From Ignavibacteriota bacterium (lineage in GTDB: Bacteria; Bacteroidota; Ignavibacteria; UBA10030; UBA6906): a stretch of DNA of 64,000 nucleotides. The translations under genes were made by a program, and so were the position numbers. Positions 12,565 to 36,333 of the stretch are shown piece after piece. A model generated the notes under the pieces. That model worked only from the letters and a program-made list of their open reading frames with translations. It did no database searches and was not told the origin of the DNA. The stretch spans positions 1,088,001-1,152,000 of the forward strand of contig CAWDEM010000008.1 of assembly GCA_963801355.1 (NCBI GenBank), in the 5' to 3' direction. The stretch's first letter is position 1; every line of letters starts with the position of its first letter.

Positions 12565-12685
12565 GGCGTCTCCTTTCGATTCTGCTTTGACGGCTGACCT
12601 GTGCTGACGTCTGAGAGTACTCACAAACTACGAGATTGTCAATTCCGTGAATGGCAGTCCTTCACCGTTTGTCCTTTACCGATCC

Positions 12686-12745
12686 TCAGGGGGGCATCTC
12701 AGGGGGGCATCTCGGGGGATGGCATCTCGGGGGATGGCATCCCCG
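12686..12745. repeat. Short tandem repeat (GGCATCTC(A/G)GGGG(GAT)), about 4 copies, in a divergent intergenic region
   Basis: ctcaggggggcat ctcaggggggcat ctcgggggatggcat ctcgggggatggcat cccc. Confidence 0.8.
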
Positions 12746-12833
12746 CAGAGCGTTTCTTGCATTTCACGATCCCGATGCATATTATTTCCGCATAGGCACT
12801 CCACACTCGACTCACAATCCGCGCCGGATCCCC

Positions 12834-13778
12834 ATGAAAACCCTCATCTGTTTCACTGCCCTACTGCTCATCTCGGCACCATTACAGGCCCAGTCACCGG
12901 TCAAAAAGGACCTCATGAAGCTCCTGGGCGAGGTTCCAACTCCTCCCCCCAATGCAAAGGAAGCCTATCGCGGGGTGACCTGTGAAGAATCGGCCATGAA
13001 CACTCTGACGTGCACCGCCGCAAAGAAATTTGAGGCTGTCGACGCCCAGCTCAAAGAAATCGAGGCCAAATACAAGGCACAGGAGGCTGAGCTAAAGGGC
13101 GCCGTGCCCCCGGGCATGTCACCGGACCTTGCGAAGCGGGCACAGGATCCGGAGTTCAAGAAGAAAATGAAGGGCATGAGCAAGGAAGAGAAGATGAAGA
13201 TGGCGATGGAGATGATGGGCTCCGGGCAGGTGGCCGCCCCCACCGTGGAACCAGAACCTCCTGCAGTGAAAAGCGCGGTTGACGAGTTGTTCAAAATAAA
13301 TGCCGGAACCCAGGAGGAGTACAATCGGTCGGTCGCTGAACAGGAGGCTGACCGGAAAGCGGAACAGGAGTACCTCGCGGCGCATCAGCAGGTCGGCACC
13401 TGGGAAGCCGATGCGATTGCCAAGCTCCCCAGAATCAGCAGCGGAGAAATGAGCGCCCCTGACCCCGCCCAGGTGAAGGTAGTCCGCCTGAAGGCCAACG
13501 ATCGTCACATCAGCGTAGTGGACCGGCGTCTCGCGCAACTCAGCAAAGAGTGGCCCGCGCGGAAGGCGCACATCACCGCCCGCTACGGCGTATTCCACGA
13601 AAAACTCGTTGCGGCGGACTATGCTGCAGGGGCAAAGAATTTCTCGACCAGGAAGACCCTCTCCGACGTACAGATAACTTTGTTGACGTCCATCGGCGGG
13701 ATCGCGCAGCAGTCACGCCATGCCTATGAGGAAGCAGCACACTGGGTGGCTCTTCGCAAGCAGATCGAAAAGGAATGA
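12834..13778 (+). CDS. Hypothetical secreted alpha-helical protein
   Basis: Signal peptide MKTLICFTALLLISAPLQA; Met/Lys-rich helical core. Confidence 0.7.
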   Translation: MKTLICFTALLLISAPLQAQSPVKKDLMKLLGEVPTPPPNAKEAYRGVTCEESAMNTLTCTAAKKFEAVDAQLKEIEAKYKAQEAELKGAVPPGMSPDLAKRAQDPEFKKKMKGMSKEEKMKMAMEMMGSGQVAAPTVEPEPPAVKSAVDELFKINAGTQEEYNRSVAEQEADRKAEQEYLAAHQQVGTWEADAIAKLPRISSGEMSAPDPAQVKVVRLKANDRHISVVDRRLAQLSKEWPARKAHITARYGVFHEKLVAADYAAGAKNFSTRKTLSDVQITLLTSIGGIAQQSRHAYEEAAHWVALRKQIEKE

Positions 13779-14114
13779 TCCTCAGGGTCCGGTGATGAAT
13801 ACCGGGCCCTTCTGTTCAACTTCATCAACCAGCGTCTATCGGACGAGGAGGAGCTTCTTCGTGTCAATATATGGGCCTGCTCCGTTCTTGGAGTCTCGCC
13901 CGACGGCGGAGTCCAGAGGGCGGATCTGCATCCTACACAGGTAGACGCCGCTTGCGAGCCCCGACGCATCGAACTTCAACTTGTGCACCCCCGCCTCCTT
14001 GCTCTCATCCACCAACACCGAGACCTCCCGACCGAGAATGTCGTAAACGACGAGCCGCACCATGCCGGCCACCGGCAACTGATAGCTGATGACTGTCGTC
14101 GGATTGAACGGGTT
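13727..14114. repeat. Direct repeat A, copy 1 (about 388 bp; copy 2 at 18055-18442)
   Basis: Covers a gene 3' end, the terminator and the CTD; about ten mismatches by eye. Confidence 0.9.
13784..13816. terminator. Hairpin terminator between convergent genes; duplicated at about 18112-18144
   Basis: agggtccggt-gatgaat-accgggccct-tctgtt. Confidence 0.65.
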
Positions 14115-17100
14115 GGGGTAGTTCTGTGCCAGCATGTACTCTGAAGGCGTGCCCGCAACGCCCCCCGGGGCCGAGGAAAGTGGGCTGGACCATCCCTGCC
14201 GCCATTGGACATCTTTCTGGTTGCCGTTGTTCTTGTTGGGTGACCTGTCCGCCACCAGGCTCCCGCTACCCTCATCGAAACGCCAGTTACCTACGAGGCC
14301 GGCTTCGTCTCCACGAAGTGTATCATGCATTGCGGCTTGTATTTCCGACTGCGTTCTGGCTATGTTCCAGATTCTCAGCTCGTCGATCATTCCATCAAAC
14401 GTCCGCGTGCGGTCGCTGTTGTTTCCGATGACGAGCGGACTGGAAGAACTGCTAATCAGGGGTCCATTGATTGGATCGGGCACATTGAGATTCTGTGGAA
14501 TTCCGTTGACGTAGACCTTCAGATCGCTCGTGGTCCCGGAGTAGCTGGCGGCAATGTGCTGCCAGTCGTTGAGCGTGATCGAGCCGAGTGAGGTGTTCGT
14601 TCTTGAGCTGGTGCCATTGGAGTGATCGATGCTGACCACCAGCATTCCGCCGGTCTCGAGGAAAACGAGAAGATTGTTCTTGTTGATGACCCTGCCGAAG
14701 CCGCTCCCCGCTTCTCCCCATCCGATGGGATGGATCCAGGCTTCGACCGTGAATGCGCTCGTCACATTAAGGCTCGCGGCCGCCGGGACATCAACATAAC
14801 TGTTCTTGCCGTCGAACTTGAGCGAGCTGTTGCCGTCGAAGACATGTACAAAACCATCCCTCGTCCGCTCCGAAAAGGAAGCCCCTCCCCCTGACCGCAG
14901 TTTCACGGTGTAGGTGCCCGGTGATGCGTAAAGGTGGTTGGGGTTCTGAGTCGTTGCGTCCATCATTCCGTCGTTCTCAAAGTCCCATTCCCAGGCTGTC
15001 ACAGGAAGGTTTGACACTGTCCCGTCATTGAACGTGACAGAGAGCGGCGCATGCCCTGTAGCCACGGCAGAACGGAAATCCGCGACCAGGTAGTCGAGAT
15101 CGACCTGCAGGCCAAAAAACCGGGCTACTTTAAGCAGGAGTCCGTACCGGTTGCTCAACGTGTCTTTGTCGACGAGTTCCGCGAGCGCGTAGGAAGAATA
15201 GAAGGTCTTTTGCCCGAAGCTCCCCTCATTCTGCACTGCAACTGTCCCGTAGCCTGTCTCTACAAATGCAGCGACCGCGGTTCCGGTGGGGGTGAATCGT
15301 CCAATGTAACTAAACGCGGTCTGGTTCGACGCAGTGAACGTCATGCCCGCTGTCAGCGCGTTCGGCTGGCCTACGAGGGCCGACAAGGGCGATTTCGCAG
15401 CCGTTCCCACGTTCAGTCCGGTGAGTCCGAAGAGTCCCACCAGAGTGGGGTCGTCGTCCTGATCGGCGGTCAACGAACCGCTCCCTTCCAGATAGACTTT
15501 TCCTCCACCCTGCAGGTAGCTCTTCACGGTGACGGCCATGCTATCGTCGAACAGGCGCAGAAAGCTCCCGACTGTTCCGTAGGAGAGGAACGCCGCGCTG
15601 AATCCTTCGAGAGTTGTGGGGAACGAGTTGGAGTACACCACCGGTACTCCCTTCGATTCGAAGAGGTCGGCTGTGAATCGCCCGCTGAAGTCTCGAGCCT
15701 CGGGAATGGCCTCCCAAACGAAGACCCCTGGACCTGAAACAAACACAGGTACCTCAAGCGAGCTCCCGTAAGCGACAGGCACATCCGAGGCCACCTGAAG
15801 GATCAATGAGGATGTGTGAGAGTGGGCCGTAGGCGAGACGAGCACTTGAAACGTATGTTCCAATTGGGAATTCCCATCAGGGGCGATGGAATCGACGGCC
15901 ACCGGGTTCAGGATCTGGAACGCAGAATCAGCGGACGTAAGAGTGAACGTCGCATTGTTCGTGGAAACGAGATGCGCGAAGTTCCTGATCGTGAATTGGA
16001 ACGAAGCCGTGTCACCCGGAATTAAGGTTCGAACGTACCTAATGTTGAAGTACTGAGGGCCCGGGACAAGATCCAACCTCAACGCTTGCTGCATTGTGGC
16101 CGTTGTTTCGCTCAGCGCCCGAAAGGCATTGATTCGCCCGGCACCGAGGGGGACACTGTTGACGGATGATATATCATCTGCAGTGGCAAGGAGCTGCCGG
16201 ATGATGCGATCATTGTCCCACGTCGGCCGGTACGATTTGATCAGCCCCAGCAGGCCCGCTACGAGGGGACCTGCCATTGATGTTCCCTGTTCGCGAATAT
16301 ATGTGCCATTCGGTCCCGCACTCAGGATCCCACCGTCATTCATCGATGAAAGCATCCCCCCCGGAGCGGCGATGTCTACAGCGATCCCGTAGGTTGAGTA
16401 TGTGGCCCTTCGGTCATCAACTCCTACGCTTGCGACTGAGATGACATGTGGATAGGCTGAAGGATATTGGAGGAATGCGTTGTTCTCGTTGCCGGCGGAG
16501 GCCACGAAGATGGCTCCCAGACCATGCACGTATGCGACCACATCTTCTCCGAATCGCGTATAGGTCGGACTCCCCCAGCTGTTATTGATGATGTGCGCTC
16601 CGTTTTCCACGGCATATACGACCCCGTCGTACGGGTTGGGCAGATTGCTGCCATTCCACGAGCTGATCGGCATCACCTTCACGTTCCAGCTGATGCTCGC
16701 AATGCCGCTTCCATTATTCGTTACACCGGCAGCAATGCCTGCGACATGAGTTCCGTGGGCCTGACCGGTGTTGGGATCATTGTCATCGCCGTAGACATCC
16801 CAACCTATCAGATCATCGCGGCGCCCGTTGCCATCGTCATCTACGCCGTTCAGATCCCCCGGGTCCATTATCCATCTCGTTCCGTTGAATTCCAGCGTCC
16901 GGCCGTCGTGATCTGCATCCTCCCCTTTGTTCTGCCAAATATTCTCCGCGAGGTCCGGATGATACCATTCCGTGCCGGCATCAACTACGGCAACGACGAT
17001 CACGGAGTCGCCGAGGTCCCCTTTGTGAATAGCCCAGGCCTGTTCGGCCTGAATTTGCGGGAGATGCTGAAGTTGCGCGTAGAGTGAGTCGTTCGGGATG

Positions 17101-17519
17101 TCATCAGGATAAAAACACGGGATCGGTTCCGCATACTCGATTCCTGGATCGGCTCCGAAGGCTTCCACAACTTCACGAAGGTTTTGTACAGGAGGGAACG
17201 ATATGCGGCTGATGCGGGAGAGGTCCGGGAGGTTGGGTCCGGTCCGGACGCGCGATTGGTGAAACATCCGCTCAACCGCTGTCACCCGGTAGCGCGCGCA
17301 CAGCGCATCGACAGAGGGAACGCCAGTCAGTGCAATACTCCCCGGTTTTGCCAGGCCGCCTATCACCTGCCTGAACTTGACGGCAATGACGCCACTCTGG
17401 TAGAGCGGCCTTCCCCTCTCGTCTTTCGCAACAGAGTTATCCTGAGAGAGGGCAGGCCCATCCGCCAGAAAGAACAGAAAGCCACAGAAGACTCCCCATC
17501 GACAGTTCACGTGCAGCAT
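13836..17519 (-). CDS. S8 subtilase with PKD, LamG-like and T9SS CTD domains
   Basis: Catalytic triad VAVVDAG / HGTHVAG / GTSMAGP; PKD WEWDF..DG...NP.H.Y..PG.YTV.L; LamG WQHIAASY...IDELRIWN; AAGGAGG SD. Confidence 0.9.
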   Translation of the reverse strand: MLHVNCRWGVFCGFLFFLADGPALSQDNSVAKDERGRPLYQSGVIAVKFRQVIGGLAKPGSIALTGVPSVDALCARYRVTAVERMFHQSRVRTGPNLPDLSRISRISFPPVQNLREVVEAFGADPGIEYAEPIPCFYPDDIPNDSLYAQLQHLPQIQAEQAWAIHKGDLGDSVIVVAVVDAGTEWYHPDLAENIWQNKGEDADHDGRTLEFNGTRWIMDPGDLNGVDDDGNGRRDDLIGWDVYGDDNDPNTGQAHGTHVAGIAAGVTNNGSGIASISWNVKVMPISSWNGSNLPNPYDGVVYAVENGAHIINNSWGSPTYTRFGEDVVAYVHGLGAIFVASAGNENNAFLQYPSAYPHVISVASVGVDDRRATYSTYGIAVDIAAPGGMLSSMNDGGILSAGPNGTYIREQGTSMAGPLVAGLLGLIKSYRPTWDNDRIIRQLLATADDISSVNSVPLGAGRINAFRALSETTATMQQALRLDLVPGPQYFNIRYVRTLIPGDTASFQFTIRNFAHLVSTNNATFTLTSADSAFQILNPVAVDSIAPDGNSQLEHTFQVLVSPTAHSHTSSLILQVASDVPVAYGSSLEVPVFVSGPGVFVWEAIPEARDFSGRFTADLFESKGVPVVYSNSFPTTLEGFSAAFLSYGTVGSFLRLFDDSMAVTVKSYLQGGGKVYLEGSGSLTADQDDDPTLVGLFGLTGLNVGTAAKSPLSALVGQPNALTAGMTFTASNQTAFSYIGRFTPTGTAVAAFVETGYGTVAVQNEGSFGQKTFYSSYALAELVDKDTLSNRYGLLLKVARFFGLQVDLDYLVADFRSAVATGHAPLSVTFNDGTVSNLPVTAWEWDFENDGMMDATTQNPNHLYASPGTYTVKLRSGGGASFSERTRDGFVHVFDGNSSLKFDGKNSYVDVPAAASLNVTSAFTVEAWIHPIGWGEAGSGFGRVINKNNLLVFLETGGMLVVSIDHSNGTSSRTNTSLGSITLNDWQHIAASYSGTTSDLKVYVNGIPQNLNVPDPINGPLISSSSSPLVIGNNSDRTRTFDGMIDELRIWNIARTQSEIQAAMHDTLRGDEAGLVGNWRFDEGSGSLVADRSPNKNNGNQKDVQWRQGWSSPLSSAPGGVAGTPSEYMLAQNYPNPFNPTTVISYQLPVAGMVRLVVYDILGREVSVLVDESKEAGVHKLKFDASGLASGVYLCRMQIRPLDSAVGRDSKNGAGPYIDTKKLLLVR

Positions 17520-17931
17520 GACACACCTCCTTTGGAAATCCGCGGAAATTGGGAGTGAGTTCTGCCATCGATGACAGTGGCAAGAGTGAGGAGATCGGAA
17601 CAAGAAATCGGGATGAAGGCGTTCGTGAACCGACGAATATATAGAGAAGACGGACGCAGAACGATTTCTTGAGGGACAGCTGGGGAAACGGTATTGCCCG
17701 CGCGGTAAGACCTTCTTTTCGGCTACCCCTTGTGGAGGTACGATTCGTCAAGAACGATAGCCCGTTGAGCACAGATCCTTTCGAGATTGCCTGTGAAGAC
17801 CTCTCAGGGAAGCCGGGAGAGGCTCGTCAGCAATCGCCCTGCAAAGAACAGCAACAGAATAAACCGCAGACTCACAATAGTATGTACAACCGCTAACAGA
17901 TCATATTTGTTCCCCGAGGGAAGAAAGCCGA

Positions 17932-18106
17932 CCAAATACAAGGAACAGGAGGCTGACCGGAAATCGGAGCAGGAGTACCTCACCGCGCATCAGCAGGTCG
18001 ACACCTGGGAAGCCGATGCGATTGCCAAGCTCCCCAGCATCAGCAGCGGAGATTTGAGGAAGCAGCACACTGGGTGGCTCTTCGCAAGCAGATCGAAAAG
18101 GAATGA
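17932..18106 (+). pseudogene. Deleted duplicate remnant of the 12834-13778 gene
   Basis: Mosaic of 13066-13090, 13340-13452 and 13727-13778. Confidence 0.85.
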
Positions 18107-18442
18107 TCCTAAGGGTCCGGTGATGAATACCGGGCCCTTCTGTTCAACTTCATCAACCAGCGTCTATCGGACGAGGAGGAACTTCTTCGTGTCAATATAT
18201 GGGCCTGCTCCGTTCTTGGAGTCTCGCCCGGCGGCGGAGGCCAGAGGGCGGACCTGCATCCTACAGAGGTAGACGCCGCTTGCGAGCCCTGACGCATCGA
18301 ACTTCAACTTGTGCACCCCCGCCTCCTTGCTCTCATCCACCAACACCGAGACCTCCCGACCGAGAATGTCGTAAACGACGAGCCGTACCATGCCGGCCGC
18401 CGGCAACTGAAAGCTGATGACTGTCGTCGGATTGAACGGGTT
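18055..18442. repeat. Direct repeat A, copy 2
   Basis: Offset 4328 bp from copy 1. Confidence 0.9.
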
Positions 18443-20668
18443 CGGATAATTCTGGTTCAGCGCGTATGTCATCGGCCCGGGTTCGCCCGGCTCCACGGAA
18501 ACCAGCGCCTCGGTCGGCCAATTCATCACCAAACGCGCATCAGCGCCAAGTCCCAGTTTTGCAGTCGCGGGGAGCACCGTGGCCGAGAATGCCGGACCTT
18601 TCTTCTGGGCGTTTGCGGGAAAACTATCCTGCGCAACATAGTAGAGATAGATCTTTGTCGCTCCGGGTAGCAGCGTAACCCCTCTCCACTCCCAGTAGAG
18701 ATCGTCTCCCAGAATCGATACAGAATCCACTCTGTCTGCCCCTCCCATGCCGTCAAAAATGTGCTGTAGATTTGGCGCTGAAGCGGAGGGGTACTTGTCA
18801 TCGGTCCACAGCCAGGTATCTGCCGTCGTGAAGAGCGTGTCCCCGGTGGAAGTCGCAATGACCTTGGAGGGATTTGCTCCCAAATCAGAGTACACACCAA
18901 CATTCACTGTGATCGGCGCCGCTGTTGGATTTGTCAGAATATCCTGGATGCGCATGAAGCCGAGCGTGTCACCCTGAGTCGCTGTTGGAACAAAGAACTT
19001 GCGTGTGACGGAAAGCCCATTGACGATCGCCGGTCCGAACACAAACTGCCTGCCGTCAAGTTCAGTCAGAGAGTAGTCGGGTTTGCTGGAAAAGGTCGTG
19101 CCGTTAATCGTCAAGAGGTACGCGTAGGTGTACGCAGAGTTCATCCCGGAGCGGAGCTCTGTTCCACGCCCGATGGTGGCAGGATCATAGAGCATTTCAT
19201 GAATATCGGCGAGTCCTTTGAAGCCTCCCCAGTAGTACACATATGTCGCCTCATTGGGTCTTATCCGCACATAGTACGTTCCGGCAGTTGGAAACCGGTA
19301 ATTGGGATAATAATTCTTGAAGGTGTTGGAGAGTTCGCTGGTGGCGTTGTGTAGAGATATGTTTCCGCTTCCACAACCATGCCCCTCGATTGAGTAGACG
19401 AAGAATCCAATCTCATTTGCCTCCGCAGTGTATGCGTAGAAGTCGGTATCAGGTGCCACAACACCTGCATCCAGACCGGGAAAGAGTGTGGCAATGCCGG
19501 TTTCTCCCCAGGCCCGCGGTGTTGCCTGAGCCTTTGTGTTGTTCGGCTCGTATTCGTCGGGCACAATTGTCTCACCCGTGTAATGTGCTTCCAGAGTATA
19601 AGATCCGCCGGCACCACTCCTGTTGACGACCTGTATGTAGCGGTAGCCCGGCACTGATGCAGCCGAGTAGAAGCCCGGGTATCCGCCGGAATGGGACGTA
19701 ATATGTGTGACGGAATCGGAGCCGTACATGCTGATTGTCATGTCGCCTGGATCACCGGCATTCTTGGCCCTGCTCTCGACCACGAAAATATCCCCGGGCC
19801 ATGTCCAGACTTTGAAATAGTCTGTATCGGCCGGAGCGATTGAGGCCTCAAGCAACTTGCTTTCGTAGTTCACGGGGGTTGCGGCGGCGAAGCAGCTGTT
19901 GGATTCGTTCTCATTGATGAACGCGTCGGGCCGTTCTGCGAGGGCAACGAGTTTCTTCGCACTGAATGTTCCGTGCAATCCGCCGGAGGCGGCGCGGTTC
20001 CACGCAACGGTATCACGTTCATCTTCAAAATGGTACACAGCCACAAGACCGGGCTCGTTGCCTTTGGCTTCATGTTTCCAGAGCGCGGCTATCTCGGATG
20101 CTGAACGGACGACGTTCCAGATCCGGATCTCATCGAGCAGGCCGGAGAACTGATCACCATATGCACTAGCGCCGATTCGGAGATCCACGTTGTTGTTCAC
20201 GAACCGAACGCCGGCAAATGCAATAGACCTCACTTCGCTACCATTAACGTAGAGAGCGTAGCGGTGCGCGATAGTGTCAATGCTTAGTGCGAGATGCATC
20301 CACGTGAGCGTATCGAGAGCAACGCGCGGCTTCCAAGCTTGGTAGTTCGAAAAGGCCAATGTCAGGTCAACACTATCGGTCCGGCCTGTAAGCGACTGGA
20401 TGCCCAGAGAAAAGCCGGCTTTGTAGCCCTTGTCAATAACCGCGCCATATGCGTGTGTGGGCATCGCCAACTTCACCCAGGCCTCGATGGTCAGTTGTGG
20501 TGCAAGATTGAGCGGGGCCGCGTGGGGAATAACCACGTACCCCTTTCCCGCATCGAGAACGGCATTGGAGTTAACCTGTGCGGCCAGTGGTGAAGCGAAG
20601 AGAATGAACACCGGCGCTAAGAACAGAAGGCGCCATCCTTGGAGAGTGCGGGTACTAGAAGAGTTCAT
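18164..20668 (-). CDS. T9SS cargo: LamG-like domain, PPC-like (pre-peptidase C-terminal) repeats and CTD
   Basis: GGAGG SD; TIEAWVK..LDEIRIWN; E.E.N.....A and DTD.Y motifs; LNQNYPNPFNP. Confidence 0.8.
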   Translation of the reverse strand: MNSSSTRTLQGWRLLFLAPVFILFASPLAAQVNSNAVLDAGKGYVVIPHAAPLNLAPQLTIEAWVKLAMPTHAYGAVIDKGYKAGFSLGIQSLTGRTDSVDLTLAFSNYQAWKPRVALDTLTWMHLALSIDTIAHRYALYVNGSEVRSIAFAGVRFVNNNVDLRIGASAYGDQFSGLLDEIRIWNVVRSASEIAALWKHEAKGNEPGLVAVYHFEDERDTVAWNRAASGGLHGTFSAKKLVALAERPDAFINENESNSCFAAATPVNYESKLLEASIAPADTDYFKVWTWPGDIFVVESRAKNAGDPGDMTISMYGSDSVTHITSHSGGYPGFYSAASVPGYRYIQVVNRSGAGGSYTLEAHYTGETIVPDEYEPNNTKAQATPRAWGETGIATLFPGLDAGVVAPDTDFYAYTAEANEIGFFVYSIEGHGCGSGNISLHNATSELSNTFKNYYPNYRFPTAGTYYVRIRPNEATYVYYWGGFKGLADIHEMLYDPATIGRGTELRSGMNSAYTYAYLLTINGTTFSSKPDYSLTELDGRQFVFGPAIVNGLSVTRKFFVPTATQGDTLGFMRIQDILTNPTAAPITVNVGVYSDLGANPSKVIATSTGDTLFTTADTWLWTDDKYPSASAPNLQHIFDGMGGADRVDSVSILGDDLYWEWRGVTLLPGATKIYLYYVAQDSFPANAQKKGPAFSATVLPATAKLGLGADARLVMNWPTEALVSVEPGEPGPMTYALNQNYPNPFNPTTVISFQLPAAGMVRLVVYDILGREVSVLVDESKEAGVHKLKFDASGLASGVYLCRMQVRPLASAAGRDSKNGAGPYIDTKKFLLVR

Positions 20669-20907
20669 AGGACCTCCGTGTGAGTCGCTGCCTTGCGCCC
20701 CCTTCCACTCCCACTGGGCTGCTGTGGTGCTTTTCAAAGGGGGGGAAGAGGCCCGTCCTCTCAGGCGGCCCTTTGTTGCACCGCTCTCCGGTGGGAGGGG
20801 CGGCTGAGAAGGGGGATATTCAGCGATGAGTGAATTCTAGGCAGGAACCGGAAGTAGTGCAATCCCGCAAACACGGTATTATTGACAGAATTCTGATTTC
20901 GTGCGTT

Positions 20908-21678
20908 CTAGGCCGTCCGTGCCGCGCCGAAACTGCGAGAGGTCAGGACCACATACGCATCCACAGACATGTCTTCGCTCGTCGCGGCTGTGATCCCCGG
21001 GTCGCCCTCTTGTTTCAACTTCCACTGGTACAGTGCCGATAGGGTCGGCTGCAGGATTTCCCTCAGCGCTCCGAACCGTCCCGATGTCTCGTACCGCTCT
21101 GCGGCCTCCCGACTCTCCCAGATGGTGAAGCTGATGAATTCGAGCGGATCCGAGACGCTCTGCGCGAGCTGGATGGAACAGCAACCCGGCTCCTCTCGAA
21201 GCTCAGGCAGCACGCTGTCCCGGTAGAGGCTGGTGAGTCTTTCCGCCTGCCCCGGCTGGACCAGCATGGACACGATGCGCAGGTAACCGCAGGTCGGCCT
21301 GATGGGTGCTCCGGCGGTCCCGTATTCGGCGGCACCGACGTAGGCCTGGACGACAGGCTCCTCCTTCACGGGAACGTATTCCAGGCGCAGGTCCTCGGAA
21401 AGACGCAAGTCCCAGTTCGTGGAGTCCGAGAAGTAGGGACGGGACACGTCGACAAGTTCGGTGAATAGTCCGCTCTTTTCATATGCGTCCGCGTCGTCCT
21501 TCGATTTCCAGAGGCTCAGGCTTACGGCACAACTCTTTTTGATGGTATTCAACACCAGAGCCGCGTACAAACACCCCGGGGTCCGCGCGAGCGCAGGGAT
21601 GATTTTCGCTGTGTACTCCGCGCTGAATTCCGCGGCGCGATCGGAGTCAACTTGCGTCTGAACGAGCCGTAGATACAT
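20908..21678 (-). CDS. Tandem ABM (antibiotic biosynthesis monooxygenase-like) domain protein
   Basis: Two repeats of '..P.L...PGC.....SxxxWESxE.A..YE.SG.F'. Confidence 0.8.
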   Translation of the reverse strand: MYLRLVQTQVDSDRAAEFSAEYTAKIIPALARTPGCLYAALVLNTIKKSCAVSLSLWKSKDDADAYEKSGLFTELVDVSRPYFSDSTNWDLRLSEDLRLEYVPVKEEPVVQAYVGAAEYGTAGAPIRPTCGYLRIVSMLVQPGQAERLTSLYRDSVLPELREEPGCCSIQLAQSVSDPLEFISFTIWESREAAERYETSGRFGALREILQPTLSALYQWKLKQEGDPGITAATSEDMSVDAYVVLTSRSFGAARTA

Positions 21679-21787: not shown

Positions 21788-21794
21788 GGGCTGA

Positions 21795-24039: not shown

Positions 24040-26631
24040 CTAATGGAATACGTTCTCGATGAACACAAACCTCATTTTCCGATAATTCTCGGTGTAGGCA
24101 ATTTCCTTGCCGTCTCTACTGATACTGAAGAACATGCCGAGACCCGGGAACTTCCTCACCGCGTGGTCAGCACCATCCGGCAGCGATATGCGGTGAAGCT
24201 CCGAGGAACCAAAAGGCACATAGAACATGTCGCGCATGCCCCGAGGAATTTGGGCGTACGAGATCCCTTTGGTCAACCTTCTTGCTCTCTCCATCCCTGA
24301 TGTACTGGATGATGCAGTCGTGGTGATCCACCATCCCTCCCGCCCCGTGCGCCAATCAATCCCGACCACCCAGTTCCCATTCAGCACGGGGATAGCAAAG
24401 ATGGAGTCTTTCGATATTCTCACGCGATCAGGTTGATCGATTGAGATCTTGTGCGTCCCCCCGAATCCCCAAGTGAGGAACTCTTTCTCATTGATCCACG
24501 GGGCGAAAATCCCTCTGCCCATGATTCTTGGCTGTTCCGGTCTGTCAGTCTGAATCAAATAGACCCATGAGGAATCCTGAGGCTCGGTACTGGGACGAGC
24601 AGAGTACGTTATCCACTTTTCATCGGGAGACCAGTAGGGGAATGATTTATAGCTCATGTCATCTGTGAGCTCCCTGATATTCCCTCCGTTTCTGTCCACA
24701 ATGCATATGACCCTTCCGGAGGCTGCGGCATCGGTTCCCTGAGCGGGAAACGCGACATACCTCCCGCTCGGCGAGATCGAAGACATCCCCCTCTGCTGCT
24801 CATCCACGGTAAGCTGTCTGACGCTTCCATCACTGATGCTGGCAATCTTCACTTGTCCGATATCCTGAACTTCAGAGTACATCAGTCTCCTGCCATCCCC
24901 GGCCATCCCCATCGGGGCGTCGGGTCCGCTCCCCCGTGTCACCTGAACGGGCTCTCCACCGCTTGCCGGAATCATCCACAGGTTGATGTTGCCCCCCCTG
25001 TTGGAGGAATAGAAAATGTGGCCTGTCGGACTCCAAAGCGGGTCGTCCGCGATTTGTTGGTCAAATGTCAGCTGACGGTCTGTACCTTTTTGTATGTCAC
25101 GAACCATGATCTCGGAGTATCCCTGAGGGAAGTTCTTTGTCCATACTATGGCTTTCCCATCCGGCGAGAATCTGAAGGCAAAACGAATACCGGTTCTTGC
25201 CTTCATGGTGTCGGCAATAAGGATACTCCGATCCGTTCCGTCCGGATTGCACCCCCACAACTGAATAATCCTCAGGTCTTGCGGATACGTTTGCACAACG
25301 TAACCAAATCGCTGCCCACCCGGCATCCAGGCCGGATTATGCCCATCGCGCACGATCACCCGTCCTGTTCCCCCTAGCGAAGAAATGCTGACAATCTCAT
25401 AGGTGTCCCACGGAGAGGAACGACGGCGCGAATACAAGATCGTGCTCGCATCCGGCGATATTGAGACATTGTCTATGCGAAAGCAGGAATCGTGTGTGAT
25501 TCTCCGCGGTTGACCTTGCGCTACATTCATCATGTAGACATCGAATTTCCCGCGATCATCAGAGGCGGGGAAAATAATCCAGTTACCGTCCTGTGACAAG
25601 TCGGCATAGTCAACATCGTGAAAGGGGAGCTGGACGACACGGGATTTCATATCCGGGTTCAATTCAGGTCCGCGGTGAAGAAGGACAGCCAATACCCCTG
25701 CGCATACAAGAGCACCTATCGCCACGAGCAGAATCGTAAGCCGCTTCTTCGATCGCTGAGGCGTTCCTTGTGAAGGGACCGTCCCCATCTCGTTTGATAG
25801 GTCAGGTGATCTCACAACCCTCGTGGTCTCTTTCTTCAGCCTTCGCAGGTCGATCAGCATCTCGTGAACCGTCTGATACCGTTCTTCGGGATCCTTCTCC
25901 AACGCCCGGCTGAGCACATGCATCAGTTCTGAAGGCGCGTCTGGAACATAGTGTTGCAGGGGCGCGGGCTCCTCGTTCACAATCGAGTACATAATTGCCG
26001 CCTCGTGCTCCCCACGGAACGGGAGATGACCAGTGAGCATTTCATACAGCACAACGCCAAACGAGAAAATGTCCGACCGCGCGTCGACCTCTCCCCCCTG
26101 GATCTGCTCGGGAGCCATGTAGGCCAGTGTCCCGAGGGTGCTCGACGTCTTGGTCAACTTCAGTGATCCCTTCAGCTTGGCCAACCCGAAGTCCATCACC
26201 TTCGCCTGGTTCTTCGTGTTGACCATGATGTTCTCGGCCTTTATATCCCGGTGCACTATTCCGTGCGCGTGGGCTTCCTGGAGGGCTTCCGCAATTTGCA
26301 CCGCATAGGCAATCGCGTCCTGGATCTTCTGCAGGGGGATGATCTCACGGAGCGTTTTCCCCTCTACATATTCCATCACGATGAACTGCTGACCTTCGTG
26401 TTCGGAAATATCATGTATGGTGCAAATATTGGGATGGTTGAGGATGGCGGCGGCCCGAGCTTCCTGAAGAAACCGTGCGCGTTCAGGCGCATCGGCAGCG
26501 AGGCCGAAAGGGAGAAACTTCAGGGCGACGGTACGTGTAAGCTTCAGATCCTCGGCCTTGTAGACCACCCCCATACCACCTTCGCCGAGCTTTTCGAGGA
26601 TCTTGTAGTGGGAAACAACTTTGCCGATCAT
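24040..26631 (-). CDS. Hanks-type Ser/Thr kinase with TM helix and TolB/PD40 beta-propeller
   Basis: LGEGGMGVVYKA, HRDIKAEN, DFGLAK, YMAPE; repeated SPDG motifs. Confidence 0.92.
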   Translation of the reverse strand: MIGKVVSHYKILEKLGEGGMGVVYKAEDLKLTRTVALKFLPFGLAADAPERARFLQEARAAAILNHPNICTIHDISEHEGQQFIVMEYVEGKTLREIIPLQKIQDAIAYAVQIAEALQEAHAHGIVHRDIKAENIMVNTKNQAKVMDFGLAKLKGSLKLTKTSSTLGTLAYMAPEQIQGGEVDARSDIFSFGVVLYEMLTGHLPFRGEHEAAIMYSIVNEEPAPLQHYVPDAPSELMHVLSRALEKDPEERYQTVHEMLIDLRRLKKETTRVVRSPDLSNEMGTVPSQGTPQRSKKRLTILLVAIGALVCAGVLAVLLHRGPELNPDMKSRVVQLPFHDVDYADLSQDGNWIIFPASDDRGKFDVYMMNVAQGQPRRITHDSCFRIDNVSISPDASTILYSRRRSSPWDTYEIVSISSLGGTGRVIVRDGHNPAWMPGGQRFGYVVQTYPQDLRIIQLWGCNPDGTDRSILIADTMKARTGIRFAFRFSPDGKAIVWTKNFPQGYSEIMVRDIQKGTDRQLTFDQQIADDPLWSPTGHIFYSSNRGGNINLWMIPASGGEPVQVTRGSGPDAPMGMAGDGRRLMYSEVQDIGQVKIASISDGSVRQLTVDEQQRGMSSISPSGRYVAFPAQGTDAAASGRVICIVDRNGGNIRELTDDMSYKSFPYWSPDEKWITYSARPSTEPQDSSWVYLIQTDRPEQPRIMGRGIFAPWINEKEFLTWGFGGTHKISIDQPDRVRISKDSIFAIPVLNGNWVVGIDWRTGREGWWITTTASSSTSGMERARRLTKGISYAQIPRGMRDMFYVPFGSSELHRISLPDGADHAVRKFPGLGMFFSISRDGKEIAYTENYRKMRFVFIENVFH

Positions 26632-26853
26632 GGGAATCTCCACGGGCGTGAATGATCCATGCGGCACAGGGAAGCCAACCGGACGCCGGTAATGTACAGA
26701 GGGGTGGCTCCAGAGTCAACTGTCCGGGGCTTCATCTTGGGCACTTCATCTTGGGCACAGCAGTCCGACGGCACACAGAGCGACCTGGGATTTCCTTGCT
26801 TTTCACCTACTGGAGAAGTCCTTAAGGGCGTCTCCGTGACCTCGCAGCCCGTA

Positions 26854-27780: not shown

Positions 27781-28065
27781 TGTGCAGCATCCTGGGTGCT
27801 GCCGTGCAAGAGGGTGCCTCTGCATAAATGCTGCCAGATGACTGATGGTTTTGTCAATTGTCTCCTTGGATCCCGTGCGAGGCACAAATGGACTTCCGGA
27901 TTCGCACGAAGAGGCCGCCTGCACGCAGTTTCTGCCATGGGATTCGTAGGAAATGTAGCAGAGAATTCCGGAATCTGCAAGCACGTCATGATACCGTATT
28001 AGCGGCAACACCGGCTTGGCGGAGCGTCATTGCACACTCCAATCGGCGGAGTGTGTCGTGATACA

Positions 28066-28093
28066 CAAAAGGCCCAGTGTGATGCTGAGCCTT
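28066..28093 (-). terminator. Intrinsic terminator
   Basis: Minus strand aaggctcag-catcaca-ctgggcctt followed by ttgt. Confidence 0.6.
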
Positions 28094-28115
28094 CTGCATA
28101 TCGATGGTGCAAAGT

Positions 28116-30344
28116 CTACTTGAGCAATAGGAGCTTGCGCGATTGGACGAAGTCTCCTGCTCCGCCTTTGGAGTCACCCCCTTGGGCGGAATCCAAAGGG
28201 CGGACCTGCATGCGATAGAAGTACACGCCGCTGGGCAGACGTGAGCCGTCGAACTTGACTTCGTGGTAGCCTGCATCCTCTTCCCCATTGTGCAGAAGGG
28301 CGACCAGCTCGCCAAGGGTGTTGAAGACTGTCAGGGTCACCTGAGAACGAGCGGGCAGACCGTAGCGGATTGTCGTCGAAGGGTTGAAGGGGTTGGGGTA
28401 GTTCTGTTGAAGCAAGAATTCCTGCGGCAACACGCTTGCCACGGGGTCAATCGAGGTAATCATTTCCGACAAGGGGCGTCGCCACACGCCGCTACCAGAA
28501 GTTCCGGCATAAAGGTTCGTCCCACTGACAACGAGAGACCAGACACTCGTGATTGTCAGACCTGAGCTAGCATCAGTCCAACTTGTGCCGTTGTTGGTGG
28601 TGAGAAAGATGCCGCCGGAAGTCCCAGCGAGCAGATTCGTCCCACTGACGACGAGAGACCAGACATTCGTGTTCGTCAGACCCGCGTTGACCGCAGTCCA
28701 ACTTGTCCCGTTGTTGGTGGTAAGAAAAGCGCCTTCAAAAGTTCCAGCGAAGCGTCTCGTCCCACTGACCGCAAGAGACCGGACACTCTTATTCGACAGA
28801 CCTGAGTTAACCGCAGTCCAACCTGTGCCGTTGTCGGTGCTAAGAAAGACGCCGCCGCCAGAAGTCCCGGCAAAGAGACTCTTCCCGTCGACGACAAGAG
28901 ACTGAACATTCTTGTCTGTCAGACCTGAGTCGACAGCCGTCCAACTTGTGCCGTTGTTGGTTGAAAGAAAGACCCCGCCGCCATATGTTCCGGCTAAGAG
29001 ATTCGTGTCGGAGACGGCAAGAGCACGGACTTGCGTGTTCGTCAAGCCGGTACTTGCGAGGGTCCAGCTTGTGCCGCTGTTGGTGGTAAGAAAGACGCCA
29101 CCGCTATCATTCTGCGCAAGAAGATACGTTCCGTTGCCAACAAGAGACGTGACCCTCGTGTTTGTCACCCCTTCGTTCAACGCAATCCAGTTTGTCCCGT
29201 CATCGGTGGAAAGAAAGCCACCTCCGCCGTAATAGAAGAGAGAGCCTGTCCCCGCAAAGAGCTTTTCCCCGCCGACCGCAAGAGACCAGACTGACGTGTT
29301 GGCCAGGCCAGAGTTGAGCGAACTCCAGCTTGTGCCGCTGTCGGTGGAAAGGAATACACCCCCCCCGGCGCCAATGCCCGCAAAGAGCTTCGCTCCGCCC
29401 ATCCCGTCCGAGGCGGGGCCAACAGCAAGGCTCCGGACCCACGCATTCTTCGGTAGGCCCGAGCTGGCCGCAGTCCAGTTCTTGCCATTGTCCGTTGTGC
29501 GAAAGACGGCATCGCCAGAACCCAAACTGTATGTCCCCGCAAAGACATTCGTACCGAAGACAGCAAGAGTGCCAACCGAACAATTCGTCAAGCCGGCTTG
29601 AGTCCAGCTTGTCCCGTTGTTCGTGGAAAGAAGGACGCCGCCAGAAGTCCCAGCAAAGAGATTCGTCCCACTTGCAGCAAGAGACCCGATATTCGTGTTC
29701 GTGAGACCTGCGTTGACCGCTGTCCAGTTCCCGCCGTTGTTCGTGGAAAGAAAGACACCGCCGTTAGTCCCCGCGAAAAGACTTGTCCCGATGACGGCAA
29801 GAGAGTAGACGAGTGTGTCCGTCAGACCTGAGCTAGCCAACGTCCAGGTCGTACCATTGTCCGTTGAACGATAGACCCCACCTGGGGTCTCACCACCATA
29901 TCACGTGTGCCCTGGGGTACCCGCAAAGAGATACGTGCCACTCACAGCAAAAGACCTGACAAACGCGCTCGTTAAACCTGTAGCAATCCAGCTTTGCCCG
30001 TTATCGGTGGAACGAAAGACTCCACCGCAAAGAGTCCCTGCAAAGAGATACGTCCCGGTTATCCCATTGGAGGCCGGAAAGGCCGCAAGAGAGGAGACCA
30101 CCATATCCGCAAGCCCGGAGTTGACCGCACTCCAGCTTGCTCCATCGTTCGTGGTACGAAAGACACCTCCGGCATCATGAATGCCAAAAAGGGGAAAGCC
30201 TGTTCCCACAAACACATCCGTGCCACTCACAACAATGGCGCCAACCTCACCACCACCGGGACCGCACGTTTGGACCCATTGGGCTGACACACGGGGGCAC
30301 AGCAGAACGATGACGAGTCCGAGGCAAATACATTGAGTGTTCAT
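28116..30344 (-). CDS. BNR/Asp-box beta-propeller T9SS cargo interrupted by an in-frame TGA at 29901-29903 (nonsense mutation or Sec readthrough)
   Basis: ORFs 29901-30365 and 28116-29840 share a frame: FAGTPGHT*YGGETPGGVYRSTDNG; many 'LFAGT..GVF.ST.NG..W' repeats; CTD. Confidence 0.8.
28192..28406. repeat. Direct repeat B, copy 1 (215 bp; copy 2 at 32502-32716)
   Basis: CTD-coding DNA; one mismatch (28302 vs 32612) by eye. Confidence 0.92.
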
Positions 30345-30791
30345 CCAATCCTCCATATAGCGCAAACGTTGTCGGAGATTTCTGACATGAAGTCGGACTC
30401 GTTGTGCCCTCGGGTAGCAGGTTATCGCAGAAACACTCGGCGGCTCGCCGACTCCTGCGCCAGGCCGAAGAAAGCAGGTCCCTCCGATGGATGAAATCCT
30501 TCGGAAATCCGTATGAGAGATGGGAGTGTAAGAGCAGAGGCAAGAATCGGACTTGCGCCCTCAGGTCTCATACGGCAACCGCCCCGTCCACCGCATAGAC
30601 CTATGTGCTATGGCGCAAACCTAAGAAAGGGCATGATCAATGTCAATGGACATCCCTTATGGGGATTCTACTTGAAAACACAAAGCCCCAAGAGATCATG
30701 AGGCTTTCGTCATGCCTATCGTTGCAGAGGGTCTATTGGATGAACATGAGCTTCTTGGTCTCCACGTACGATCCGGCGTGAAGACGAAAGT

Positions 30792-30827
30792 TTGCTCTCT
30801 TGAAACATTTATCGTATTATTACGATA
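30792..30827 (+). promoter_or_regulatory. hgcA promoter candidate (TTGCTC-17 nt-TATTAT) overlapped by palindrome TATCGTA-N4-TACGATA, an ArsR/SmtB-like operator
   Basis: Perfect 7-bp arms at 30810-30816 and 30821-30827 in an AT-rich patch upstream of hgcA. Confidence 0.6.
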
Positions 30828-30930
30828 TAAGATTAAGAATATGGGAGTCTGCTCTGTGCCAATCCAACCACACATCCGACGGTGTTGTGAGATCGTGAAC
30901 TCACCTGCAATCAAACACGAAGAGTCAGCG

Positions 30931-32025
30931 GTGAAGCCTTCTGAAACCACTGCCATCGACCCCAGTTCCTGCGGGTGTGCGAAGTCCAAATCAGCACCAA
31001 GACATCCGACCGTGGGAGCCATTGAAACTTCCGAAAAATCGATTCCGCAGATGTCGACGCGCCTTCAAGCAACCGATCATCTCGGCGCAGTGATGGTGCG
31101 TTTGGGTATCCGAAGGGACCGCTACCGGATCGAGCCAGGATTATATGCCGTCGGAACACCCGATGAACGCTCCGATGTGCTTGTGACCGCCAACTACAAA
31201 CTGACCGTCGATTCGGTGCGAAAGAACCTCACGGGTCTAAACGTTTGGCTTCTGGTGCTTGACACAAAAGGAATCAACGTTTGGTGTGCCGCAGGGAAAG
31301 GCACTTTCGGCACCGACGAGCTTGTTAACCGCATCAAACTGACTTCGCTTGAGACAGTTGTCAGGCACAGGCGCCTCATTCTTCCCCAACTCGGTGCTGT
31401 GGGTGTCGCGGCACATCTCGTGAAGCAGCGTTCAGGATTCACTGTGCTCTACGGGCCGGTGCGGGCGACAGACATACCCGCATATATTCAGGCTTCATAT
31501 AAGGCGACAAAGGAAATGCGCCTGGTGAACTTTGGGTTGGTAGATCGCGCGAAACTTATCCCCAATGATTTCGTGTACGGCATGCGCTATCTGCTCGCGG
31601 CAGCGGGTGTGCTCCTCCTTCTCTCGGGCATCACCAAAGAAGGCTTCTCAATCCGGCAGGCACTCGAACACAGCGATTCTACGATTCGCAATCTGGGTCT
31701 GGGGTATTGCGCCGGGATAATCTTCACACCCCTGTTTCTTCCCCTCATACCCACCCGTCCGTTTGCGCTGAAGGGTGGGCTCATCGGTGTGTTCCTCTCA
31801 GCCCTGCTCCTGTTTGTCCTCCGGCCGGTGACTAATCCCGGAGAAACAATCGCCTGGGCCTTGATGATAACGAGTGTTTCATCATTCATGGCAATGAATT
31901 TCACGGGATCTTCGACATACACATCGTTGTCGGGCGTGAAGAGAGAGATGAAGGTCGCAGTTCCCATTCAACTATCTTCAGCCGTGCTTGCCGCAATTCT
32001 TCTGGTTCTCGACAATATCATATAG
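30931..32025 (+). CDS. hgcA: Mercury methylation corrinoid protein HgcA; start uncertain (GTG 30931, or ATG 30841)
   Basis: PGLYAVG.P...SDVLVTANYKLT.D; cap helix GINVWCAAGKGTFG (NVWCAAGK at 31276-31299); LILPQL; YGPVRA.D; C-terminal TM helices with MNFTGSSTYTSLSGVKREM; followed by a ferredoxin. Confidence 0.97.
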   Translation: MKPSETTAIDPSSCGCAKSKSAPRHPTVGAIETSEKSIPQMSTRLQATDHLGAVMVRLGIRRDRYRIEPGLYAVGTPDERSDVLVTANYKLTVDSVRKNLTGLNVWLLVLDTKGINVWCAAGKGTFGTDELVNRIKLTSLETVVRHRRLILPQLGAVGVAAHLVKQRSGFTVLYGPVRATDIPAYIQASYKATKEMRLVNFGLVDRAKLIPNDFVYGMRYLLAAAGVLLLLSGITKEGFSIRQALEHSDSTIRNLGLGYCAGIIFTPLFLPLIPTRPFALKGGLIGVFLSALLLFVLRPVTNPGETIAWALMITSVSSFMAMNFTGSSTYTSLSGVKREMKVAVPIQLSSAVLAAILLVLDNII

Positions 32026-32033
32026 AACTCCCA

Positions 32034-32333
32034 ATGATGAAGAGACCAGTCTACCTGCCGGATGTCGTCACCCTTGCATTGGATGAAACTATCTGCAACG
32101 GATGTGGCATGTGTACAAAGGTGTGCCCGCATGCCGTTCTTGAAATGCGTGACGGCAGAGCTCATATCGTTGATCGTGACTACTGCATGGAGTGCGGGGC
32201 GTGTGCGCGCAATTGTCCGCTTGCGGCCATCTCTGTGCGCACCGGGGTCGGCTGCGCGGCGGGTATCATCAGAGGAACGCTTACGAACAGCGAACCTTCA
32301 TGCGGATGCGATCAACAGGCAGTGTGCAAATAG
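32034..32333 (+). CDS. hgcB: Mercury methylation ferredoxin HgcB, 2[4Fe-4S]
   Basis: CNGCGMC..VCPH and CMECGACARNCP, then GVGCA and a Cys tail; 8 nt after hgcA. Confidence 0.95.
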   Translation: MMKRPVYLPDVVTLALDETICNGCGMCTKVCPHAVLEMRDGRAHIVDRDYCMECGACARNCPLAAISVRTGVGCAAGIIRGTLTNSEPSCGCDQQAVCK

Positions 32334-32372
32334 TTGCCGGCAGGTCTTTCAGAATACTCGCATCTCCTTGAG

Positions 32373-32400
32373 GAGGCCCGGATATCCCGAGCCTTCTTGT
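32373..32400. terminator. Hairpin between convergent hgcB and the T9SS gene
   Basis: gaggcccgg-atatc-ccgagcctt-cttgt. Confidence 0.5.
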
Positions 32401-32425
32401 TGCATCAACGCGGGGACAAATGTCC

Positions 32426-34252
32426 CTATCGCAAAAGAACCAACTTGCGCGTCTGAACGAAATCTCCCGCTCCGCTCTTCGAGTCTCGCCCTCTGGCGGA
32501 GTCCAAAGGGCGGACCTGCATGCGATAGAAGTACACGCCGCTGGGCAGACGTGAGCCGTCGAACTTGACTTCGTGGTAGCCTGCATCCTCTTCCCCATTG
32601 TGCAGAAGGGCCACCAGCTCGCCAAGGGTGTTGAAGACTGTCAGGGTCACCTGAGAACGAGCGGGCAGACCGTAGCGGATTGTCGTCGAAGGGTTGAAGG
32701 GGTTGGGGTAGTTCTGCGAGAGAGAGAACGATCCAGGAGAATTCCCCGCATCGGGGACATCCAGATTCAAGTCGATGGCGTCGAAGTAGACATTCGCCGG
32801 ACCGTATCCTACGTAGGCGACGTTGCCGCGGTAGAATGTCCCGGATATGTCACGGTCGAAGCTGACCACAGGAGCGATGGAATAGTCCGACCGGAACTGA
32901 TTGACAACCTCCGCACTCTCATCGTACCAGGAGCTGAGTTTGCTTTGCAGTGCCTTGTAGTAGATAGTCCCATCGTTGTATGTCGATCGATAGGCTACAC
33001 GCCAGTAATAGCCTGAACCCCACGGAGCAAAACTGATTGATGGAACACCCTCGTAATACGTTGATATGGCGATGCTGTCGTGGGCGTACGTCCTGAACTG
33101 GTTGCTGGAACGGAAGCTCCTGACATCCTGGTAGGTCGGAGCTGCTGAGTTGCGTGTATACACAATCATTGCGTTCCCACGGCTGGGATCGATCGCCATC
33201 GCCGGATCATAGTTGTCGCCTGGCTGCGGTGAAGGAACGGTAAGGGCCCATGAAAACGGAACGATCTTGGGACTGCGCACGATTCGGATCACACGGCTCG
33301 GGTACTCGCCACGCGCGTATGCGACGAGGAGGGTGTCTGGTGTCGTGCCGTAGTCAACAGCGATCACCGGCGTTCCCTCCTGGCCTGAATGAAGGCTCGT
33401 GTCCGGAGTACCCCAGGTCACTCCGCAATCTGTGGTCTGCACGATGAAGAGCCCCCGCGCAATGTCGGTCGAGGGAGTGATGTACTCAGCCGCAACGTAG
33501 TGATATGTCACTTGCGGCAGATAAGTAGCGCCATCCGTGCATATGCTCGGGTTGCGGAAGCCCAGCCCCGTTCCGGTTGAAGCGATCGTTTTCGACCGCC
33601 AGTTTGTTCCATCGCTGAGCAGGCTCATCCACCCGAGCGACCCTCCGCCATCCACGCTCTTGTCCGACTTGATCACATATGCCACGGAGACAAGCCATTT
33701 CCCACCCGCCGTATCAGTGACACACATATCGAACGCCTGCATTGGACCACCAGGCGAGTAGACTCCGCCGATCACTGACCAGCTCGTGCCGCCGTTTGTC
33801 GACCGATAAATGGAGATCTGAGAGAGCGTGTCCCTGAACACCCTGTTCAATCCAAGATAGATGCCTCCAGCCGTGTCCGCACACATGCAGATCTGGCGTT
33901 TGCCCTCGCCCGGATAGACTGCTCCGTTGAAAACCTCCACATCGTTCCCCCAGAGCGGAGACGTGACTTCCTCCAGCTTTTCGCAATCGCCGGAAGCGAT
34001 CGCAAGGACATCCTCAGCAGGTGGTGTGGGCGATTCAGGGAAGAGGGCTTTCTCCAGTTCTCGAACCTTTGGGATGCTGCCCGCTTTGCGCGCCAGCGAA
34101 AGCTCGCGCAGAAGGCGGAATGTCTCCGCCGGTAGAGCGTTGTCTGCAGCAATCATTTCATCAGAGCAGAGCTCTATTGGTGTCTGGGCCGGCATCGCAG
34201 TGTAGCACAGGAGAAGAGCCAGCAAAAACGCAATGGAAAAGGCAGTTCGCAC
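32426..34252 (-). CDS. T9SS cargo, sialidase/BNR-like beta-propeller with CTD
   Basis: GTG start with GGAGG SD; signal peptide; YRSTNGGTSW Asp-box; LSQNYPNPFNP. Confidence 0.75.
   Translation of the reverse strand: MRTAFSIAFLLALLLCYTAMPAQTPIELCSDEMIAADNALPAETFRLLRELSLARKAGSIPKVRELEKALFPESPTPPAEDVLAIASGDCEKLEEVTSPLWGNDVEVFNGAVYPGEGKRQICMCADTAGGIYLGLNRVFRDTLSQISIYRSTNGGTSWSVIGGVYSPGGPMQAFDMCVTDTAGGKWLVSVAYVIKSDKSVDGGGSLGWMSLLSDGTNWRSKTIASTGTGLGFRNPSICTDGATYLPQVTYHYVAAEYITPSTDIARGLFIVQTTDCGVTWGTPDTSLHSGQEGTPVIAVDYGTTPDTLLVAYARGEYPSRVIRIVRSPKIVPFSWALTVPSPQPGDNYDPAMAIDPSRGNAMIVYTRNSAAPTYQDVRSFRSSNQFRTYAHDSIAISTYYEGVPSISFAPWGSGYYWRVAYRSTYNDGTIYYKALQSKLSSWYDESAEVVNQFRSDYSIAPVVSFDRDISGTFYRGNVAYVGYGPANVYFDAIDLNLDVPDAGNSPGSFSLSQNYPNPFNPSTTIRYGLPARSQVTLTVFNTLGELVALLHNGEEDAGYHEVKFDGSRLPSGVYFYRMQVRPLDSARGRDSKSGAGDFVQTRKLVLLR
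32502..32716. repeat. Direct repeat B, copy 2
   Basis: Offset 4310 bp from copy 1. Confidence 0.92.
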
Positions 34253-36287: not shown

Positions 36288-36333
36288 AGATGCTCAGTTC
36301 GCTTTCAAGGATTCCAACGCAGCAGTTCTCCAC

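Follow-up and report, generated by a model that had tools for sequence, protein, structure and literature searches.

Near-identical direct repeats in type IX sorting-domain sequences on both sides of hgcAB in an Ignavibacteriota genome, a probable trace of local gene conversion

The stretch of DNA analysed here (64,000 nucleotides, called the window below) comes from an Ignavibacteriota bacterium with a genome of 4.8 Mb in 8 contigs (assembly GCA_963801355.1, contig CAWDEM010000008.1, positions 1,088,001 to 1,152,000 of the forward strand). It carries the mercury-methylation genes hgcA and hgcB between two genes for secreted cargo proteins of the type IX secretion system (T9SS). The 3' ends of both cargo genes, which code for C-terminal sorting domains (CTDs), contain a direct repeat of 215 nt with a single differing base, although the cargo proteins themselves are unrelated. 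Both copies of the repeat lie within one 3.0-Mb contig and have unique flanks. We suggest that hgcAB was already flanked by the two neighbouring genes when gene conversion between them, as is probable, gave rise to the repeat.

The first cargo gene (gene A, 28116..30344, minus strand) encodes a beta-propeller protein of the Sortilin/BNR type, the second (gene B, 32426..34252, minus strand) a protein of 608 aa as called in the protein collection. Both proteins carry at their extreme C-terminus a T9SS type A sorting domain (Por_Secre_tail, PF18962 / TIGR04183). The scores exceed the curated cut-offs of 27 bits in Pfam and 23 bits in NCBIfam, with 34.1 and 32.2 bits for gene A and 33.4 and 29.1 bits for gene B. 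Hydrophobic N-termini resembling signal peptides are visible in both translations on inspection; in gene A this segment lies upstream of an in-frame TGA. The TGA (29903-29901) falls within a 30-nt insertion (29881..29917, minus strand) with a 7-bp direct repeat, CCCCAGG, at 29917-29911 and 29887-29881. The insertion is missing from every paralogue aligned across the site and has no second copy in the genome. Interrupted by this TGA, gene A is probably a pseudogene. The best match of its beta-propeller protein in the protein collection reaches 62%, and a strong terminator-like hairpin follows the gene (approximately 28048..28095, minus strand; -27.9 kcal/mol, z -3.8).

The cargo part of gene B matches no Pfam family and shows two Asp-box-like motifs. 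Its closest relative in the protein collection is 74% identical overall, with about 26 of 51 CTD residues matching after the QNYPNPFNPSTTIRY motif (hand count on the alignment). A metagenome contig of 1216 nt, which matches gene B at 87% in its best segment, ends short of the CTD. Homologues of about 50% identity occur in another genus, and the only neighbour they have in common with gene B is a kinase-domain match in one genome.

Between these two genes, on the opposite strand, lie hgcA (30712..32025, plus strand, taken as the longest open reading frame, ORF; the match to the HgcA family begins with residue 111, near 31042) and hgcB (32034..32333, plus strand), a ferredoxin with two [4Fe-4S] clusters that starts 9 nt past the end of hgcA. 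HgcA scores 417 bits against NF040863 (cut-off 275) and HgcB 120.3 bits against NF040864 (cut-off 99). The motif GINVWCAAGKGTFGT (NVWCAAGK) is present in HgcA and invariant in an alignment with two relatives; we take N(V/I)WCA(A/G)GK to be the general form of the HgcA cap-helix motif with its cysteine. Judged by profiles and motif, hgcA and hgcB form an intact mercury-methylation pair.

Repeat search and pairwise alignment delimit a direct repeat of 273 nt (28134-28406 and 32444-32716) with 95% identity and a spacing of 4310 nt. Its core consists of the two CTD tracts, copy A (28192..28406, minus strand) in the 3' part of the beta-propeller gene and copy B (32502..32716, minus strand) in the 3' part of gene B. 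Over 215 nt they differ at one position, 28302 G against 32612 C, which is a synonymous change in a Val codon and the only difference in 71 codons. Beyond the core, the tails (tail A, 28116..28191, and tail B, 32426..32501, both on the minus strand and each comprising the last 25 codons and the stop) are mismatched at 24 of 73 coding bases, as opposed to 1 of 215 in the tract (Fisher p=3.8e-15). The codon differences in these 25 codons are 11 synonymous and 7 replacement changes.

The limits of identity are sharp. On the cargo side identity begins at the Q of QNYPNPF (28406 / 32716), upstream of which the cargo sequences give no alignment (BLASTP E=0.08, from Asp-box motifs only). On the 3' side it drops abruptly at 28191/28192, within a hairpin-forming inverted repeat (about 28160..28206, minus strand) in a CTD insert with the peptide RPLDSAxGxDSKxGAG, so that tail A starts inside this insert. 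The initial annotation of this DNA had described direct repeats of 215 bp with one differing base, in genes of unrelated cargo, running from the QNYPNP codons to a break inside a palindromic insert. Alignment, protein comparison and the fold of the inverted repeat bear out all of this. It had also placed the beta-propeller gene body and hgcAB together with its promoter in the 4310-bp interval. The profiles agree as to the genes, and of the promoter there is just one match to a sigma-70-like consensus (30672-30699) upstream of hgcA.

How unusual is such a pair of tracts? The genome contains about 202-204 CTD loci as found by tblastn. When pairs were compared over at least 150 aligned nt, the 1514 distant pairs had a median identity of 70.4% and a 99th percentile of 82.4%. 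The tract itself is 78-81% identical to other CTDs. Equal identity at many unlinked CTDs would have been one point against the initial annotation, and this is not what we see: third CTDs match at 80-81% at best. The pair formed by genes A and B is exceptional among the CTDs of this genome. High identity is also concentrated among neighbours. Of the 153 pairs within 10 kb of each other, 29 could be aligned and 6 of these reach at least 88%, compared with 4 of the 1514 distant pairs. Whole-gene paralogues make up three of the six near pairs and two of the four distant ones. After extension of the top pairs into their flanks, four proved to be limited to the CTD, namely that of genes A and B, a second pair in the window, and two whose members are widely separated. 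One of the latter shares 294 nt at 92.5% across 804 kb and in opposite orientation, the other 281 nt at 89% between different contigs.

The second pair in the window lies 14 kb from the first. Copy 1 (13727..14126, minus strand) comprises the CTD and 109 nt past the stop codon of a subtilase-type cargo gene (13836..17603), copy 2 (18055..18454, minus strand) the corresponding part of gene 18164..20737. Over 400 nt, beginning at the CTD start, the copies have 13 mismatches (96.75% identity). The cargo parts have only a LamG domain in common, at 28%. The repeat encloses just the body of the first gene and no passenger genes. Beyond copy 2 lies a remnant (17943-18058) of convergent gene 12651..13778, the neighbour of copy 1, in which the remnant corresponds to 13338-13453. 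This indicates that about 0.8 kb was copied, with the first locus as donor and the second as recipient. With no passengers enclosed and a piece of a neighbouring gene dragged along, the second pair argues that CTD-containing segments are copied between neighbouring genes irrespective of hgcAB. The spacings of the two pairs are similar, 4310 and 4328 nt, and a larger duplicated unit behind both was considered; we rejected it, as the pairs show only CTD-level similarity to each other (74-81%). Altogether the window (1-64000) contains 10 CTD-bearing ORFs, all on the minus strand and at about four times the genome-average density, with stop-side ends near 1416, 4486, 13839, 18167, 28119, 32429, 46087, 48302, 50264 and 63341.

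The position of the tract ends deserves attention. The CTDs of genes A and B belong to a type with a 15-residue insert near the C-terminus (RPLDSAxGRDSKSGAG-like; 28140-28206 and 32450-32516), of which the genome has at least 15-19 among its CTDs. Aligned with MAFFT, 19 insert-type CTDs of the genome (copy B left out) show mean pairwise identities of 0.85-0.86 over the QNYPNPFN codons and of 0.93 where the insert starts, falling to 0.43-0.76 between these points. Both tract ends coincide with these two peaks. We infer from this coincidence that resolution of the exchange took place in the sole segments in which diverged paralogues have near-perfect homology.

The insert also speaks about the earlier history of gene B. 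Among the matches listed for the gene B family, 1 of 39 has the insert, and it is this genome's own gene B; among those listed for beta-propeller homologues the motif occurs in 1 of 120, again from this genome. A DNA search located insert-type tails, with identities of 72-93%, in 16 of the family's 68 genomes and in 8 of its 29 genera, and the DNA of this tail is more conserved than the remaining CTD. This pattern suggests that gene B acquired an insert-type CTD at an earlier time; homogenisation of the 215 nt would then be a second, recent layer. T9SS sorting domains of this genome evolve in concert, domain by domain and independently of their cargo.

We consider recent local gene conversion between two neighbouring cargo genes, which already flanked hgcAB, to be the simplest account and a probable one. 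Intrachromosomal ectopic conversion, either as a non-reciprocal copy or as replacement of a short 3' end, would have made 215 nt alike in the CTD-coding ends of two T9SS cargo genes that share a strand and lie 4.3 kb from each other. The tract would have been anchored at two islands, the QNYPNPFN codons and the hairpin-forming insert. According to this model, hgcAB lies between both genes because the region is dense in cargo genes and was not brought in by the repeats. The outcome would be the present arrangement, in which hgcAB and a disrupted beta-propeller gene are bracketed by a 215-bp direct repeat.

What is found here is what a conversion tract should leave: a patch of near-identity next to a diverged but homologous 3' flank, homogenised synonymous sites, recurrence in a second pair free of passengers, and dependence on proximity, seen as enrichment among neighbours. 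For these reasons gene conversion, which the initial annotation had named as the alternative, is the better-supported origin of the repeat. There are also points that weigh against it. The state before conversion is seen in no sister genome or read, and the order of events, with conversion following the placement of hgcAB, is inferred. All other CTDs match the tract at about 80%, and either gene may have been the donor. The cargo-side end of the tract is at the same time the end of homology, which leaves only one boundary diagnostic of a patch. The same picture could result from integration by a crossover that was accompanied by a conversion tract. Finally, unitigs of the same strain cover the stretch from hgcB to tail B (32324-32473) without crossing the repeats.

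The competing explanation closest to the initial annotation is that the repeats are the footprint of integration. A circle composed of the beta-propeller body, hgcAB and one CTD would have recombined into the CTD of gene B, and the reverse reaction would remove hgcAB again. Direct repeats in the same codon phase indeed bracket a unit with hgcAB and its upstream region, and hgcA has a patchy distribution (in the family 4 of 68 genomes, all from different genera; 0 of 4 congeners, which are 93-97% complete). The stretch from gene 20908..21678 to GGT is not conserved in the four congeners. There, a DNA search with 20 kb found only GGT and gene 20908..21678 conserved, in one genome (G002), and the body of gene B and the deacetylase were not found in any of the four. 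Surveys of hgcA, as far as the available portion of PMC7438021 goes, describe no insertion sequences or transposases nearby and unshared neighbourhoods, and leave the mechanism of transfer open. On the other side, Pfam scans of 10 ORF translations (21795-37701, with small ORFs outside the scan) gave no recombinase or transposase. A simple crossover, for its part, makes the two repeats no more similar than donor and recipient were. It cannot make a patch of 99.5% beside a tail of 67%, and a conversion step is therefore required in any case. With CTDs in general only about 70% alike (99th percentile 82%), homologous entry would moreover have a poor substrate, and the similar CTD repeat 14 kb away encloses only a cargo body.

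Comparison with other hgcA loci points in the same direction. We searched 83 of them (80 from genome contigs and those of genomes G017, G040 and G065) with an HMM built from the CTDs of this genome, which recovers the 10 CTD ORFs of the window as a positive control and may miss divergent CTDs. With that reservation, CTD ORFs bracket hgcA at 0 of the 83 loci. Any CTD ORF within about 7 kb is present at only 4 of 82, and G065 has none. The three other genomes of the family or order with hgcAB (G017, G040, G065) have nothing but hgcAB in common with this locus. The composition of hgcAB is native-like: ranked among 946 genome windows, its tetranucleotide distance lies at the 63rd percentile and its GC content, 0.532, at the 8.6th. 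On this ground we rejected a recent foreign origin. We hold integration to be very unlikely, and the proposal of the initial annotation that hgcAB entered through CTD homology, with CTDs as portable homology for gain, is not upheld by the count of loci, the background identity and the composition. An artefact of assembly or polishing, in which CTDs were homogenised by the assembler or by mis-mapped reads, could appeal to the same-strain unitigs (run X1), which are 151-205 nt long, about 2x deep and never cross the repeats. Yet both copies lie with unique flanks in a 3.0-Mb contig of an 8-contig genome, the tails and one base of the tract differ between them, and mis-mapping between sequences otherwise about 78% alike would be implausible. 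The other CTD-only pairs are graded between 89 and 97%, as for events of different ages, and we regard an artefact as extremely unlikely. Purifying or convergent selection on the secretion signal has in its favour that CTDs are functional signals with conserved motifs (Por_Secre_tail matches). It would have to keep 71 codons alike down to synonymous sites, yet tolerate 11 synonymous changes in the adjoining 25 codons of the same domain, and the same constraint leaves some 200 other CTDs only about 70% alike. As gene A is probably a pseudogene, its CTD would not be under selection at all. The likelihood of this explanation is practically negligible.

In favour of local gene conversion after the arrival of hgcAB we can add data from a wetland sequencing run. 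Contigs of depth 3-5 match the deacetylase at 96%, gene B at 95%, GGT at 95% and an hgcA/hgcB piece at 92.4%, and one of them joins the deacetylase to tail A. This suggests that a relative of about 95% identity also has hgcAB, although there is no linkage among the contigs. In that case hgcAB would be older than the tract, which has diverged by 0.5%. The nearest HgcA proteins outside the family, at 57-58% identity, come from metagenome-assembled genomes of Bacteroidales. In G065 (contig C29, locus L148, about 9434-10580) the hgcA match ends at residue 366 of the window protein and of hgcB only residues 64-93 are matched; this suggests a deletion across the hgcA/hgcB junction that produced a decayed or fused gene pair. 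A scaffold of congener G002 (G002:C118:1-9114) carries in positions 1-1290 a 136-nt piece that matches window 21594-21729 at 98% and abuts the 3' end of GGT. The orthologous sequence around it reaches only 81-83%, and the scaffold also contains an N gap and a CTD remnant. Given the gap and the uneven identity it is possibly a chimeric assembly or a rearrangement, and we base no conclusion on it.

Regardless of its origin, the repeat may have consequences for the stability of the locus. The initial annotation had claimed that recombination between the repeats would delete hgcAB and leave one intact cargo-CTD gene. The geometric part of this claim holds in the alignment, the tracts being direct, 4310 apart and in the same codon phase. 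Since they are in phase, a crossover would fuse the body of the gene at 32426 to the tail at 28116 and produce an intact cargo-CTD gene. The beta-propeller body and hgcAB would be removed as a circle of 4310 bp, and a chimeric cargo gene would remain. Logan contigs from four runs bridge neither repeat, and of the 16 joints in them none of the 15 listed has the 4310-nt geometry expected for an empty allele or a circle. As the contigs are too short for an exact 215-nt repeat, the sequencing-run shares are small (0.11, 0.06 and 0.06) and the same-strain run is about 2x deep, this negative carries no weight as to the existence of such molecules. One may go further and imagine that CTD islands act as recombination anchors which repeatedly make identical repeats, so that the enclosed DNA becomes excisable and hgcAB, and with it the capacity for mercury methylation, is lost in natural populations of this lineage without a scar, a working chimeric cargo gene being left. 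We think this wider scenario unlikely.

Rates of deletion between direct repeats are known from E. coli. In-phase repeats of 215 bp with 99.5% identity at a distance of 4.3 kb are a textbook substrate for RecA-dependent deletion, which is predicted from sequence alone to yield a circle unable to replicate and a chromosome that keeps one repeat. The arrangement also resembles Campbell-type or homology-facilitated integration in that the bracketed DNA lies between direct repeats of shared homology. It differs in that repeats formed by such integration are only as similar as donor and recipient, and here no donor module, no recombinase and no empty site was found.

A second parallel concerns the cargo genes. 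In Porphyromonas gingivalis, kgp, rgpA and hagA have common 3' sequences. Domain rearrangement and gene conversion among surface proteins with T9SS CTDs of this species are described in the available part of PMC5266723. Like the adhesin modules of gingipains and HagA reported there, the tracts of genes A and B are near-identical patches in otherwise different T9SS cargo, of domain size and with sharp limits. Unlike the exchange of adhesin domains or alleles in that portion of the paper, it is the CTD signal itself that is exchanged here, once with its downstream flank. The partners are neighbouring genes of unrelated cargo, and the host is an environmental bacterium. PMC5266723 was the only match of a full-text search for gene conversion of T9SS CTDs, and among the matches listed in the literature on mobile elements and context of hgcA nothing concerned repeats flanking the gene; neither result proves novelty.

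Several other repeats were noticed in the course of the analysis. A 59-nt fragment of a Ser/Thr-kinase N-terminus (21732-21790) lies between gene 20908..21678 and an ORF of 741 aa. It is 88% identical to 26576-26634, the start of kinase gene 24040..26667, and has about 24 similar copies in the genome. Fragment and kinase start bracket a block of 4.8 kb. Elsewhere in the assembly, contig C4 starts with a 100% identical tandem repeat (C4:46-2976, period 2715), contig C8 contains an inverted duplicate of about 3 kb at 96% (C8:25328 / C8:2670430), and a small contig is 90% identical to part of C8 (C7:13227 / C8:318143). These long repeats may represent an assembly end effect and strain haplotigs.

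All in all, this is one isolated case, for which ordinary conversion between neighbouring genes of secreted proteins is the best explanation. As to the gain and loss of hgcAB, the accessible part of PMC10083202 argues for vertical inheritance accompanied by extensive loss, and the patchiness described there and in the corresponding part of PMC7438021, with transfer and extensive loss, is matched by the family studied here, in which 4 of 68 genomes carry hgcA and their neighbourhoods are unshared. As far as the text of both papers is available, neither mentions flanking repeats or a mechanism of loss, and the present locus offers one concrete, though unproven, route that can be tested by PCR. 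If our assumptions are true, deletion between the repeats would be a transposase-free way to lose hgcAB and could help to explain its patchy distribution. The concerted evolution of CTDs, in turn, is relevant to the ways in which secretion tags are acquired by cargo proteins and exchanged among them.

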